IMG/VR virus record: IMGVR_UViG_2740892369_000044
DNA: 38,716 nt
From: a virus
Taxonomy: Duplodnaviria > Heunggongvirae > Uroviricota > Caudoviricetes
Strand: one strand, 5' to 3'
Both the position numbers and the translations under genes were made by a program. Positions 5,436 through 35,569 of this stretch are shown one piece after another. Position 1 is the stretch's first letter. Every line of letters begins with the position of its first letter. The notes below the pieces were generated by a model. That model ran no database searches. It saw only the letters and a program-made list of their open reading frames with translations, and was not told the origin of the DNA.

Positions 5436-5512
5436 TTACCGTTGAGGTAATAATTATGCGTATCTGGTTTGGTGTCAATAGATATGAGTTAAAAAAATTA
5501 CCCGTTAGGTAA
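5436..5512. promoter_or_regulatory. OL-like operator region: two copies of the TTACC-N5-GGTAA inverted repeat (about 5436-5450 and 5498-5512)
   Basis: TTACCGTTGAGGTAA and TTACCCGTTAGGTAA read directly, upstream of the leftward early operon and downstream of the repressor terminator. Confidence 0.6.
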
Positions 5513-5522
5513 TCGAATAGGC

Positions 5523-5548
5523 AATAAAAAAGCCGCCATAAGGCGGCT
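5523..5548 (-). terminator. Rho-independent terminator downstream of the repressor gene
   Basis: Stem AGCCGCC / GGCGGCT with loop ATAA; A-tract on the plus strand gives a U-tract after the stem on the minus strand. Confidence 0.7.
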
Positions 5549-5569
5549 TACTTACTGAAAAATATGATT

Positions 5570-6154
5570 TTATTGTTTGTTTTTTTCGTTCTGGTTGATG
5601 ACAAATTCAATGTAACTTTCGATCTTTGCCTTCTCTGTTTCAGGTAACAATGCGTAGCGCGAGCGGTCATAGTTGATAGTTGCAGGGTCATGCGGATGAA
5701 TCAGTAGTTCATATCCGTGACGCCCGAATGCAGATGCAACATTCTCCAGGGTGGAAATGGAAACGCTGACCTCATTGTTTAACAGGCGGCTTATTGTCAC
5801 CTGGGCGACGCCGGATGCGCGGTGAAGTTTTCCCTGAGTTGAAAGGTCGCGGCTTTCACTCATCCAGCGTTCCAGGTTGTGAGCTGCCAGCTGACCAATG
5901 TCGCTTGGGCCGACAGGCTGAAAACCTTCCTGAGAAAGCGAGCGATCGATATCAAGCCAGTTACGGGGTTTATTGGCGGCAGCTTCAATTTTTCGTGCAA
6001 CCTGGTCGCCGATAACCTTCTTGCCAAGAGCCCAGCGGTTTACCAGATTTGCCTGAGTTCCAAGTTTTTCAGCCATCCGCGTCTGAACACCATTGAATTC
6101 ACGGTCGATCAAGTCGTTGAGATTTTGCCTGCGGACGTCCTGGATACTTTTCAT
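5570..6154 (-). CDS. CI-like prophage repressor with two XRE-type HTH domains and no S24 peptidase domain
   Basis: 194 aa; HTH-like segments near residues 25-60 (QTRMAEKLGTQANLVNRWALGKK) and 115-150 (VAQVTISRLLNNEVSVSISTLENVASAF); divergent from the Cro-like gene with operators between. Confidence 0.7.
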   Translation of the reverse strand: MKSIQDVRRQNLNDLIDREFNGVQTRMAEKLGTQANLVNRWALGKKVIGDQVARKIEAAANKPRNWLDIDRSLSQEGFQPVGPSDIGQLAAHNLERWMSESRDLSTQGKLHRASGVAQVTISRLLNNEVSVSISTLENVASAFGRHGYELLIHPHDPATINYDRSRYALLPETEKAKIESYIEFVINQNEKNKQ

Positions 6155-6209
6155 TTTCTGGAAAATCGCCTCATATCTGAATCAGAAGATGATTCAATTT
6201 AAAGCAATA

Positions 6210-6272
6210 TTACCCAACAGGTAAATGCACCTCATGGGTAACTATCCTTGATTTTTGTTACCTTATAGGTGA
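6210..6272. promoter_or_regulatory. OR-like operator cluster: three tandem TTACC-N5-GGTAA-type sites (about 6210-6224, 6227-6241, 6258-6272) between the divergent repressor and Cro-like genes
   Basis: TTACCCAACAGGTAA, GCACCTCATGGGTAA and TTACCTTATAGGTGA read directly in the 154-bp intergenic region. Confidence 0.7.
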
Positions 6273-6308
6273 ATATTTATTATCTGAAATAAATATCAGG
6301 CAATAGCT

Positions 6309-34983: not shown

Positions 34984-34989
34984 TAAAAA

Positions 34990-35011
34990 AGAGAGGGAAA
35001 TATCCCTCTCT
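34990..35011 (-). terminator. Hairpin terminator between the tailspike stop and the gtrB stub; U-tract is on the minus strand
   Basis: AGAGAGGG-AAATAT-CCCTCTCT preceded on the plus strand by A6. Confidence 0.5.
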
Positions 35012-35015
35012 TACA

Positions 35016-35123
35016 TTAAATTACTTTATATGACTTCAATTCTTCGAATTCACGTACCGTTTTATAAAAAATTGGTATCGCTTCTTCTTCATTGAAGACA
35101 GGAACTACAAGAGATATCTTCAT
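35016..35123 (-). pseudogene. gtrB: Truncated gtrB (GT2 bactoprenol glucosyltransferase), only about 35 N-terminal codons
   Basis: Hand translation gives [32 protein letters not shown] then KVI-stop; ATG overlaps the gtrA stop as ATGA; the stub runs straight into the tailspike terminator. Confidence 0.6.
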
Positions 35124-35482
35124 TTCGCATCCCTAAAGACAATGAACTTTGAATAGACGAAACCGCACACCAGGCTTATGGCGGAGAAGATGACGAGAGT
35201 AACAAATGGTGGCAGACCGCACATGTCAGCAGCCCAGCCAACAACTGCGCTCATAGTGCCTATGAATCCAACGTAAAGCATGTATTTCAGCGTAGTAGTA
35301 GAGGCATTGAACGTAAATTTCGCGTTAGCGTAAAAACTGAACGATACAGCTATGACAAAACCAGCAAAGTTAGCAAGTACTTGATTTGTATGTATTACGT
35401 AAATACAGAAAGCAAACACAACCCAGTGTATGAGCGTGTTTAACACTCCGATTGACATGTATTTAGTGAACAGATGAAGCAC
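35120..35482 (-). CDS. gtrA: GtrA-family bactoprenol-glucose translocase (flippase)
   Basis: Closely matches GtrA from memory ([24 protein letters not shown]...[20 protein letters not shown]...[10 protein letters not shown]); GTG start at 35482 chosen by alignment, track start 35515 is also GTG. Confidence 0.8.
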
Positions 35483-35511
35483 TTTTTCCAGAAAAAATAA
35501 AAACAAATATA

Positions 35512-35569
35512 TCACCCTTTGGGTAATTTCGTTAAGAGCTATCTGAGTTTATTTAAACCATATGTGGTT
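35512..35569 (+). promoter_or_regulatory. Late-promoter-like cassette upstream of the lysis genes: TCACCCTTTGGGTAA (about 35512-35526) and CATATGTGGTT (about 35559-35569)
   Basis: Read directly; first lysis-gene ATG at 35619. Confidence 0.5.

Follow-up and report, generated by a model that had tools for sequence, protein, structure and literature searches.

The window, by which we mean the whole 38,716-nucleotide stretch of DNA analysed (IMG/VR virus record IMGVR_UViG_2740892369_000044), is a phiV10/epsilon15-like prophage (Uetakevirus). Its early region features divergent genes for a repressor, Rep, and a Cro-like HTH protein, and a 15-bp palindrome, TTACC-N5-GGTAA, occurs three times between them (OR), twice on the other side of rep (OL) and again before units elsewhere in the window (Table 1).

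Table 1. Palindrome copies (predicted Rep operators), regulatory genes, predicted promoters and late boxes in the window; mismatches are counted against TTACC-N5-GGTAA.
Feature	Position	Strand	Sequence	Mismatches	Remarks
OL1, PL-proximal operator	5436..5450	.	TTACCGTTGAGGTAA	0	Starts at last base of predicted PL -10; spans expected start site
PL (predicted)	5450..5478	-	TTGACA-17-AATTAT		10/12
OL2, distal operator	5498..5512	.		0	62 bp from OL1, about -62 from PL; between rep terminator and PL -35
rep, 194-aa repressor	5570..6154	-			SPC32H Rep homologue; N-terminal HTH with NLVNRW helix
OR copy closest to rep	6210..6224	.	TTACCCAACAGGTAA	0
OR middle copy	6227..6241	.	GCACCTCATGGGTAA	2	17 bp from first and 31 bp from third copy
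PR (predicted)	6255..6283	+	TTGTTA-17-TATTAT
OR copy within PR	6258..6272	.	TTACCTTATAGGTGA	1	Overlaps -35, fills spacer
Cro-like 76-aa HTH protein	6309..6539	+			phrog_35, transcriptional repressor
Post-cro copy	6595..6609	.	GTACCTCAAAGGTAA	1	Right after cro terminator 6561-6580
DUF1064 unit, distal operator	8542..8556	.		0	Directly follows replication-operon terminator
DUF1064 unit, proximal operator	8604..8618	.		0	62 bp from distal; ends 3 nt before ATG 8622
terS-upstream copy 1	11765..11779	.		0	Downstream of terminator 11728-11745
terS-upstream copy 2	11783..11797	.	TTACCACGGTGGTTA	1	18 bp from copy 1; ends on A of likely terS ATG
Moron gene, phrog_4780	start ATG 14656	-
Moron-promoter operator	14685..14699	.		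1	Inside predicted minus-strand promoter
Moron promoter (predicted)	14710..14682	-	ATGACC-17-TATAAT
Portal-operon copy	15302..15316	.	TTACCTGAAAGGTAA	0	59 bp upstream of ATGTGGTT box
Portal late box	15358..15379	+	CATATGTGGTT-N5-GGTAAT
ant, 85-aa antirepressor	31909..32166	-			SPC32H Ant homologue
LexA box	32188..32203	.	CTGTATAAATATACAG		Perfect; 22 nt upstream of ant start codon
ant/tailspike intergenic copy	32243..32257	.	TCACCTGAAAGGTAA	1	47 bp upstream of tailspike ATGTGGTT box; ~40 bp from ant LexA box
Tailspike late box	32287..32313	+	CATATGTGGTT-N5-GGTAATAGAAT
gtrA-side leftward extended -10 promoter (predicted)	35535..35506	-			Spacer filled by 35512 operator
gtrA/lysis intergenic copy	35512..35526	.	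TCACCCTTTGGGTAA	1	50 bp upstream of lysis ATGTGGTT box
Lysis late box	35559..35582	+	CATATGTGGTTTATTGTGTATGAT

The window contains seven exact and six one-mismatch matches to the palindrome (13 with at most one mismatch, at least eight of them outside OL and OR), and the middle OR copy carries two mismatches, which confirms every position given in the preliminary description of this DNA. Dinucleotide-preserving shuffles gave an expectation of 0.00 exact matches and 0.68 matches with at most one mismatch, and no shuffle reached the observed counts, which bears out the earlier statement that the number is far above chance. The intergenic bias noted at the time was also found: all 13 sites lie in intergenic DNA, which makes up 6.4% of the window on our own gene map, and 21 of the 22 two-mismatch matches fall within genes, a chance-like distribution. 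When the AT-richer intergenic DNA was shuffled alone, the mean was 0.08 and the maximum 2, compared with 12 observed. In an unbiased scan of the window that covered all palindromes with arms of 4-6 bp and gaps of 0-10, TTACC-N5-GGTAA ranked first among spaced palindromes with 184-fold enrichment, and the runner-up, leaving aside sub-patterns of this motif, was enriched approximately 10-fold. The extended consensus, ATTACC-N5-GGTAAT, is a perfect inverted repeat and hence a symmetric site. We conclude that the repeated palindrome is real.

A terminator lies just upstream of the palindrome wherever this was checked (after cro, the P gene and the gp55-like gene), a position that would also fit an RNA element, such as a boxB-like hairpin acting as an antitermination or processing signal. 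The 5-bp stem and pentaloop match the geometry of lambda boxB, two of the loops read TGAAA, and for some of these intergenic regions RNase III sites had been predicted by the annotators of epsilon15. However, the hairpins have low stability (-1.7 to -6.2 kcal/mol), the OR copies are situated either upstream of the PR core promoter or inside it, an Rfam search returned no match and no N-like protein was identified. The loops vary and the arms are invariant without covariation, so that the conserved loop, covarying stem and transcribed position of boxB/nut-type elements are not seen here, and we regard a function in RNA as extremely improbable. Terminator activity and chance were also considered as explanations for the palindrome and rejected.

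Rep aligns with 5D50_A over residues 1-190 (E = 4e-42), and Ant aligns with 5D50_E (E = 1.3e-47). SPC32H Rep is built from an N-terminal domain for DNA binding, a middle domain for dimerisation and a C-terminal one for tetramerisation. A Pfam search of Rep returned an HTH domain only, with no S24 peptidase domain. The ant gene is divergent from the tailspike gene, as in SPC32H, and a LexA box over the ant promoter region is conserved in six genomes. Judged by Rep homology, Ant and the LexA box, the window encodes a switch of the SPC32H/epsilon15 type. The Rep-Ant-LexA switch of SPC32H was reportedly described by Kim and Ryu in 2013 and by Kim et al. in 2016, with structures PDB 5D50 and 5D4Z. 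According to published accounts, the SPC32H Rep tetramer binds palindromic DNA and is released from it by Ant (PMC9638917), the C-terminal tetramerisation domain resembles domains of DNA-looping regulators, the middle-domain pairs stand approximately 100 Å apart, and the repression mechanism is described as not extensively characterised (PMC9986798). The preliminary description had identified the palindrome as the immunity operator, and this assignment is supported by its position bracketing or overlapping predicted PL and PR, by the homology to SPC32H Rep and by the epsilon15 annotation. From these sequence comparisons we infer that the palindrome is almost certainly the binding site of Rep.

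Rep identity across these phages is 42-45%, and the NLVNRW helix is invariant. A search for covariation between repressor and motif was set aside, as Uetakevirus Reps down to 42% identity keep both half-site and recognition helix and offer no contrast. A scan of viral contigs for Rep returned only Reps 100% identical to that of the window; the one distant hit, the cI of Pseudomonas phage PseuP_224, is a repressor of the S24 type and has another helix, and the PseuP_224 immunity region showed no short inverted repeat beyond a terminator-like hairpin.

The predicted promoters in the early and accessory regions fall into two arrangements. PL and the DUF1064 promoter each have two palindromes 62 bp apart, at approximately +1 and -62, whereas PR and the moron promoter have one between -35 and -10. 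In total, palindromes overlap four predicted promoter elements (PL, PR, moron and gtrA). The DUF1064 promoter was assigned by eye (TTGATT at 8576-8581, a 17-nt spacer and TTTAAT at 8599-8604, followed by the proximal operator), and its -10 falls below the criteria of the promoter scan. The gene itself, previously labelled VRR-NUC, has DUF1064 as its Pfam match. The site hierarchy is best at PL and the DUF1064 promoter; the post-cro copy is imperfect in all relatives examined. Whether the two terS copies precede the terminase operon, as had been proposed, depends on the start codon: they do if terS begins at ATG 11797, the start given in the epsilon15, Tyrion and ZX5 annotations, and they do not if it begins at TTG 11719, the start given for PAS61. 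The moron homologue in the Klebsiella phage BUCT711 retains the terminator, promoter and operator core, and accessory genes in phiV10 and Tyrion bring their own copies (at 20497 and 21393, respectively).

The Cro-like protein could also read these sites, in which case the late and accessory copies would be bound mainly by Cro, or by Cro and Rep together, and would serve lytic turn-down or timing rather than silencing of the prophage. Operators are shared by Cro and CI in lambda-type switches. The protein belongs to an HTH repressor family, its HTH and the N-terminal domain of Rep are weakly similar (27% identity over 41 aa, E = 0.004), and its putative recognition helix, TTSHYIQTHLT, is invariant genus-wide, like the operator arms. 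On the other hand, it would be counterproductive for Cro to repress structural and lysis operons while the phage grows lytically, a hierarchy with the best sites at PL and the DUF1064 promoter fits a lysogenic repressor, and the epsilon15 annotators assigned their sites to the repressor. Because Cro and Rep are always co-inherited, the two are not separable computationally; nonetheless, we consider this reading unlikely. In PY54, Cro is reported to bind one OR site only (PMC4488713).

The three late units are organised differently, with the palindrome 47-59 bp upstream of a separate, genus-invariant box, CATATGTGGTT, and its centre at approximately -70, -80 and -70 from the guessed starts. At these units we recognised neither a -35 nor a core promoter overlapped by the operator, which means that repression there needs an indirect mechanism. 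The earlier claim that copies precede the tailspike gene and the lysis cassette is correct as far as it goes, but the sites at 32243 and 35512 also face the 5' ends of minus-strand genes (ant and gtrA), as the site at 14685 faces the moron. The 35512 operator would fill the spacer of a predicted promoter for a lysogenic-conversion gene, gtrA in the window and oac in phiV10. Lysogens are expected to express genes of this kind, which makes this operator awkward for simple repression. A leftward promoter built on the conserved TTGACA at 15331-15336 was rejected, as its spacing to any -10 is wrong, and the resemblance of the late box to a DnaA box (TGTGGTTAA compared with TGTGGATAA) or an IHF site is only loose. 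A candidate for the late regulator, encoded at 11340-11678 (phrog_536), had no match in Pfam, NCBIfam or the PDB, and its AlphaFold model (pLDDT 54) was too poor for a fold search.

The spacing at the late units might alternatively indicate an activator site, at approximately -62, -70 or -80 and with class-I-like phasing, that recruits RNA polymerase to promoters lacking a -35. The missing -35 elements are consistent with this, as are the distances of 47-59 bp to the ATGTGGTT box, which differ by about one helical turn. The start sites are guesses, however, the identical sequence overlaps the PL, PR and moron core promoters in repressing positions, and activation of lysis genes by a lysogenic repressor would make no biological sense. 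The preliminary description had raised the possibility of a late activator that shares the palindrome, which is unlikely because the late units carry their own invariant box. We therefore think an activating role very improbable.

The motif occurs at orthologous loci, late operons included, in six other genomes that represent four host genera (phiV10, PAS61, Tyrion, epsilon15, SPC32H and BUCT711). For phiV10, SPC32H and BUCT711 the comparison used motif search and DNA alignment. In the relatives int is also preceded by a copy, and the 62-bp operator pairing is conserved in all genomes. The arrangement is thus standard throughout Uetakevirus, podoviruses that are lambdoid only in their early genes, and the term "unusual" applied to it before does not hold. 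Across the genomes, column identity is 0.99 in the arms, 0.72 in the centre and 0.75 in the flanks. Imperfect variants are conserved as well (GTACC after cro, GGTAT before int and the moron, TCACC before lysis), which suggests tuned, graded affinities. Copies beyond OL and OR do sit at mosaic junctions, the places at which morons, tailspikes and conversion genes are swapped, as would be expected of functionless module-boundary remnants spread by recombination. Yet conservation is limited to the 10 arm bases, which appear to be under purifying selection, while the surrounding DNA diverges; positions and spacings are preserved over four host genera; and accessory modules bring their own promoter-overlapping copy. 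That the dispersed copies are mere remnants is highly improbable.

In epsilon15, the GenBank record (AY150271 / NC_004775) marks seven sites as "protein_bind, repressor, lysogeny", all bioinformatic predictions, which include those before terS, gp3/portal and the tailspike. The motif, annotated as 16-17 bp, is identical to that of the window, and the two genomes share the sites at terS, gp3/portal, tailspike, OL and the gene after the replication genes. The record marks seven of approximately 15 copies and omits OR, lysis, int and the second copy of each pair. The window differs from epsilon15 in an extra moron with its own operator, and the two Reps are only 42% identical. The dispersed operators are consequently a rediscovery of a feature in the public epsilon15 annotation, because that record already marks seven sites, late ones included. 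What is added here is the operator geometry at PL/DUF1064, at PR/moron and at the late units relative to the CATATGTGGTT box. The epsilon15 predictions reportedly go with Kropinski et al. 2007. Among the full texts searched, no paper describes the dispersed sites, and operators are not defined in the ZX5 paper.

One of the closest known systems is SPC32H, which shares with the window the Rep and Ant homologues, the LexA box at ant, the gene order and the palindrome loci; in their available portions, the studies of SPC32H cover the switch and the structure rather than the role of the dispersed late copies (PMC9638917, PMC9986798). By analogy, the arrangement is similar to that of P1 C1 or N15 CB, whose dispersed operators are linked to promoters. 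P1 shares with the window an immunity repressor, many scattered promoter-linked operators and an antirepressor in the circuit. Its operators, however, are asymmetric 17-mers bound by monomers, unlike the palindromes of the window, and C1, which is unrelated to Rep, controls a late activator rather than the late operons directly. The targets of N15-type repressors are thought to extend beyond the primary immunity region. N15, PY54 and phiKO2 (CB and Cro; PMC4488713) have palindromic operators and a lambda-like switch, as does the window, but they have a repressor of another family and fewer sites, none of them known to precede structural operons.

The stoperators of cluster A mycobacteriophages (L5 gp71) are asymmetric, orientation-dependent sites within transcribed regions that block elongation (PMC1934351). 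They have in common with the window a large number of repressor sites spread over the genome, in late regions as well, and global silencing by one protein. The window sites, in contrast, are symmetric, lie outside genes and stand beside promoter-like or conserved regulatory elements; neither the asymmetry and orientation of L5-type stoperators nor their location in transcribed regions away from promoters was found, and we do not retain the earlier label "stoperator-like". Lambda has the same divergent rep/cro genes with three operators between them, an OL set and cooperative or looped binding. Nevertheless, lambda has no operators at late operons and its CI carries S24 self-cleavage, which Rep lacks; the S24 domain and confinement of operators to OL/OR that mark the lambda CI type were not found in the window.

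Taken together, we consider it likely that Rep operators dispersed over all units act by promoter exclusion and looping, with an auxiliary lock on late units and release by Ant. Rep belongs to the SPC32H/epsilon15 family of tetrameric repressors, lacks an S24 self-cleavage domain and would be inactivated by LexA-controlled Ant. Each transcription unit would carry at least one predicted Rep operator (PL, PR/PRM, post-cro, DUF1064, terS, moron, portal, ant/tailspike and gtrA/lysis). At PL, PR, DUF1064 and the moron, where the operator overlaps the predicted core promoter, Rep occupancy would exclude RNA polymerase. Paired operators are spaced by 31 bp (OR) and 62 bp (PL, DUF1064), equal to 3 and 6 turns of the helix, with closer pairs of 17-18 bp at OR and terS; the 31/62-bp phasing would suit a tetramer with two DNA-binding pairs that binds cooperatively or forms loops. 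At the portal, tailspike and lysis units, a lone predicted operator lies approximately 70-80 bp upstream of the guessed start, followed by the invariant box, which probably marks a late promoter dependent on an activator. At these units, Rep would most likely serve as an auxiliary lock, either by looping, for which weak proximal half-sites (GGTAAT beside a -10-like sequence) are candidate partners, or by blocking upstream contacts. Such a lock would prevent expression of the structural and lysis genes in a lysogen, and SOS-triggered Ant would free all units simultaneously.

A bolder version, which we offer tentatively and consider rather doubtful, casts Rep as a whole-genome silencer with helically phased operators, tetramer looping, graded derepression and doubly locked late promoters. 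The phased positions would be approximately +1/-62 at early promoters and -70 or -80 at late ones, and a tetramer or stacked tetramers would form a loop between the full palindrome upstream and either a full site or a half-site (GGTAAT) close to the promoter. Imperfect operators would then set the order of derepression once Ant appears, and late promoters would need both an activator that works via the CATATGTGGTT box and relief from the Rep clamp. To our knowledge, such a design has had no experimental demonstration in any enterobacterial podovirus.

E. coli, Salmonella, Klebsiella and Enterobacter very commonly harbour prophages of the epsilon15/phiV10 type, which carry O-antigen-modifying conversion genes. 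All transcription units of these prophages are probably contacted by a single repressor, and this bears on how tightly lysis and structural genes are silenced and on how Ant-mediated induction could be all-or-none. It also bears on how new morons are wired into the immunity circuit, which they would join because they arrive with their own operator.

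The sequence TTACC-N5-GGTAA occurs seven times exactly in the window, compared with 0.00 expected from 100 dinucleotide-preserving shuffles of the whole window, and 13 times with one mismatch or fewer, compared with 0.68 expected and a maximum of three in such shuffles. These counts bear out the preliminary description, which had judged the palindrome to be far above chance, and all of the coordinates that it listed agree with matches that we found; the middle copy at OR, the operators between rep and the cro-like gene, is a two-mismatch site (6227-6241). When all spaced palindromes in the window were scanned without bias, TTACC-N5-GGTAA ranked first, with 184-fold enrichment; its own sub-patterns aside, the next palindrome was enriched approximately 10-fold. 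Using a gene map built from the ORF list and the annotation of close relatives, we found all 13 sites with at most one mismatch in intergenic DNA, which comprises 6.4% of the window and confirms the proposed intergenic bias. Matches with two mismatches lie within genes in 21 of 22 cases, in line with chance. Shuffling the AT-richer intergenic DNA alone yielded a mean of 0.08 matches, compared with 12 observed. The symmetrised consensus is ATTACC-(T)NNN(A)-GGTAAT, in which ACC and GGT are invariant.

By sequence, the window represents an almost complete Uetakevirus prophage (phiV10/epsilon15 group); base 1 falls at the integrase start, and the far end lies beyond the Rz gene. Identity to phiV10, PAS61, phiv142-3 and ZX5 is 97-98% across most of its length, and the late region is about 76-81% identical to those of Tyrion and epsilon15. 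Six other genomes carry the palindrome at matching loci, with 14 copies (one mismatch or fewer) in phiV10, 11 in PAS61, 15 in Tyrion, 15 in epsilon15, 13 in Klebsiella phage BUCT711 and 18 in SPC32H, of which approximately five SPC32H copies fall within genes and resemble chance matches. The common loci are OL, at the leftward promoter PL (two or three copies); OR (three copies, two of which are detectable at one mismatch or fewer in several genomes); after cro (one); before the gene following the replication genes (two); before terS (two); before the gp3/portal operon (one); between ant and the tailspike gene (one); before the lysis cassette (one, BUCT711 excepted); and before int (one), a position just beyond the left end of the window. 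In the relatives, the int site TTACCYTAAAGGTAT lies approximately 57 bp upstream of int (phiV10 26870, PAS61 238, epsilon15 26882), and the same palindrome is expected just left of window base 1; the phiV10, PAS61 and SPC32H copies match the moron site (14685) base for base. Multi-genome alignments showed column identities of 99% for the ten arm columns, 72% for the five central columns and 75% for the 20-bp flanks. Conservation is thus specific to the palindrome arms, which contradicts the idea that the copies are non-functional hitch-hikers. A boxB-like RNA hairpin is also contradicted, since the loops are variable, the arms are invariant rather than covarying, stability is weak (-1.7 to -6.2 kcal/mol) and no Rfam match was found.

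Coordinates and sequences of features in the window, with the annotated repressor sites of epsilon15
Feature	Position	Strand	Remarks
Predicted PL	5478..5450	-	TTGACA-17-AATTAT; promoter scan
rep, repressor	5570-6154	-	100% identical to phiV10 repressor; 5D50 chain A, E = 4e-42
Predicted PR (rightward promoter)	6255..6283		TTGTTA-17-TATTAT; 6258 operator within spacer
DUF1064 promoter, by eye	8576-8581, 8599-8604		TTGATT, 17-nt spacer, TTTAAT; failed the scan's A-at-position-2 rule
Second motif as ATGTGGTT	8591-8598	+	In spacer of DUF1064 promoter
phrog_536 'transcriptional regulator'	11340-11678	+	Conserved; 112 aa; last gene before terS
Moron, phrog_4780	13862-14656	-	Real start ATG 14656
Second motif CATATGTGGTT	15358-15379, 32287-32313, 35559-35582	+	
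ant, Ant orthologue	31909-32166	-	5D50 chain E, E = 1.3e-47
LexA box CTGTATAAATATACAG	32188-32203		Perfect; 22 nt upstream of ant start codon; kept in six genomes
gtrA-like gene (PF04138)	35120-35470	-	Lone; relatives have oac or other O-antigen conversion genes there
Portal unit invariant block			CATATGTGGTTAAATTGGTAATAATTTAA
Tailspike unit invariant block			CATATGTGGTTTTTCAGGTAATAGAAT
Lysis unit invariant block			CCATATGTGGTTTATTGTGTATGAT
epsilon15 annotated repressor sites	12-27, 2931-2947, 19895-19911, 35906-35922		Before terS, gp3 and tailspike for the first three; three more at OL

The window repressor shows clear homology to SPC32H Rep (PDB 5D50 chain A), and a domain search detected HTH domains and no S24 peptidase domain. 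Rep proteins of the E. coli phages are only 42-45% identical to those of the Salmonella or Klebsiella phages, and despite this divergence the N-terminal motif ANLVNRW..G.K.IG...AR.IE is invariant in the genus alignment. Because the repressor lacks a self-cleavage domain, the LexA box before ant marks induction as putatively SOS-controlled by way of the antirepressor. Rep is reportedly left uncleaved, and LexA-controlled Ant is said to bind its C-terminal domain and to strip the Rep tetramer off DNA. The outline of this switch is supported by PMC9638917 and PMC9986798, in which palindromic sites are bound by a Rep tetramer with DNA-binding pairs drawn from different dimers, the C-terminal tetramerisation domain is similar to those of DNA-looping regulators, and the middle-domain pairs lie approximately 100 A apart. 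The window encodes the repressor protein, Ant partner and LexA-box features of the SPC32H/epsilon15 switch, and its sites match the predicted repressor-site set of epsilon15, in whose GenBank and RefSeq records seven palindrome sites carry 'protein_bind, repressor, lysogeny' features. A repressor site before late operons was therefore already public as a prediction. On this sequence evidence, the window switch belongs to the SPC32H/epsilon15 Rep-Ant-LexA type. The SPC32H-type Rep, the OL and OR sites overlapping predicted PL and PR, and the epsilon15 annotation argue that the palindrome is the immunity operator, and the best-supported reading is that every copy would be bound by Rep. The Cro-like protein may bind the same sites, as its HTH is weakly related to the Rep HTH and does not vary within the genus, and computation leaves the two proteins inseparable as binders; however, repression of late genes by Cro during lytic growth would be counterproductive.

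We also considered the geometry of Rep sites at early and accessory promoters. OL1 (5436) begins on the last base of the predicted PL -10 element and spans the start site, and OL2 (5498) lies 62 bp away, at about -62 from PL. The DUF1064 unit has the same layout, with a distal operator (8542), promoter, proximal operator (8604) and ATG (8622), and six genomes share its 62-bp spacing, TATTGA block and two operators without change. Gaps between successive OR copies are 17 and 31 bp. Before terS, two copies 18 bp apart lie between a terminator (11728-11745) and the ATG (11797). The moron has a predicted strong, leftward, sigma-70-like promoter (ATGACC-17-TATAAT) with the palindrome in its spacer and -10 and a terminator directly upstream; a homologue in BUCT711 keeps the terminator, promoter and ACC...GGT core, and this accessory gene appears to come already wired to the immunity repressor. 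In phiV10 and Tyrion, the Bro-N/antirepressor genes are preceded by palindromes of their own (20497 and 21393, respectively). The palindrome is placed to repress at PL, PR and the moron promoter, which contradicts a role as an activator site. Operators that overlap the core promoter at PL, PR, DUF1064 and the moron would instead repress by occlusion, which is probably also the case at terS, where the second copy spans the ribosome-binding site and has its end on the start codon. Within the DnaT-like replication initiator gene, three adjacent tandem-repeat arrays (7203-7342; 18-bp x3.1, 24-bp x2.6 at 100% identity, 12-bp x2.4) are probably origin iterons. The stretch separating the moron from the portal operon holds a tRNA-Arg gene (anticodon TCT; 14903-14979, -), an arrangement shared with SPC32H and the O157 typing phages.

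At the portal, tailspike and lysis units, a long block located 47-59 bp downstream of the palindrome proved invariant in alignments. A second motif, shared with the DUF1064 unit, lies within the same range of distances downstream of a Rep palindrome at all four + strand units and does not vary among the relatives from E. coli, Salmonella, Enterobacter and Klebsiella, and ATGTGGTT is over-represented (six copies, five on the + strand, compared with 1.47 expected). At the late units, the motif is followed by -10-like hexamers (TAGAAT, TATGAT) and no -35 was found, which suggests that the late promoters are activator-dependent. The second motif is probably a late-promoter or activator box, and the phrog_536 protein is a candidate for the late activator. 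By eye, the N-terminus of this protein is basic, its core resembles a ribbon-helix-helix domain and its C-terminal tail is rich in Cys; the protein has no match in Pfam, NCBIfam or PDB, and its AlphaFold model (pLDDT 54) is too poor for use. A perfect 12-bp palindrome, GTGACATGTCAC, occurs at 11675-11686 and 31874-31885 (two copies, compared with 0.10 expected), in both cases at a gene 3' end directly before a terminator. One copy precedes terS and the other ant, and it is mid-way through the terS-proximal copy that the deposited genomes of epsilon15 and Tyrion are cut.

Relative to guessed start sites, the centres of the palindromes are at approximately -80 (portal) and -70 (tailspike and lysis), compared with -62 at PL and the DUF1064 promoter, offsets that differ by roughly one helical turn. 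Because the late operators are too far upstream to occlude RNA polymerase, we infer an auxiliary lock at the three units, which may act by looping to a GGTAAT half-site beside the -10-like hexamer or by interfering with upstream contacts. Such a lock would add to indirect control, in which Rep would repress the early operon encoding the activator. The 31-bp and 62-bp spacings correspond to 3 and 6 helical turns and would fit tetramer cooperativity or looping by two DNA-binding pairs; the closer 17-18 bp pairs at OR and terS are a non-integral number of turns apart. Individual loci retain their particular imperfect variant from genome to genome: GTACC follows cro, GGTAT precedes int and, in four of five genomes, TCACC precedes lysis. 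This pattern points to tuned affinities.

The preliminary description therefore stands on operator identity, but its terms 'stoperator-like' and 'unusual' do not. Unlike stoperators, the sites are symmetric, outside genes and beside promoter-like elements, and as a feature they are genus-wide and annotated in epsilon15. In contrast to lambda CI, Rep has no S24 domain and its operators extend beyond OL and OR. The logic of the sites is akin to that of the dispersed operators used by P1 C1 and, less closely, by N15/PY54 CB.

The site at 35512 fills the spacer of a leftward extended -10 promoter predicted for gtrA (35506-35535), whose TG is supplied by the GGTGA arm variant in four of the five genomes aligned. 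If real, this arrangement would place a lysogenic-conversion gene under the control of the lysogenic repressor.
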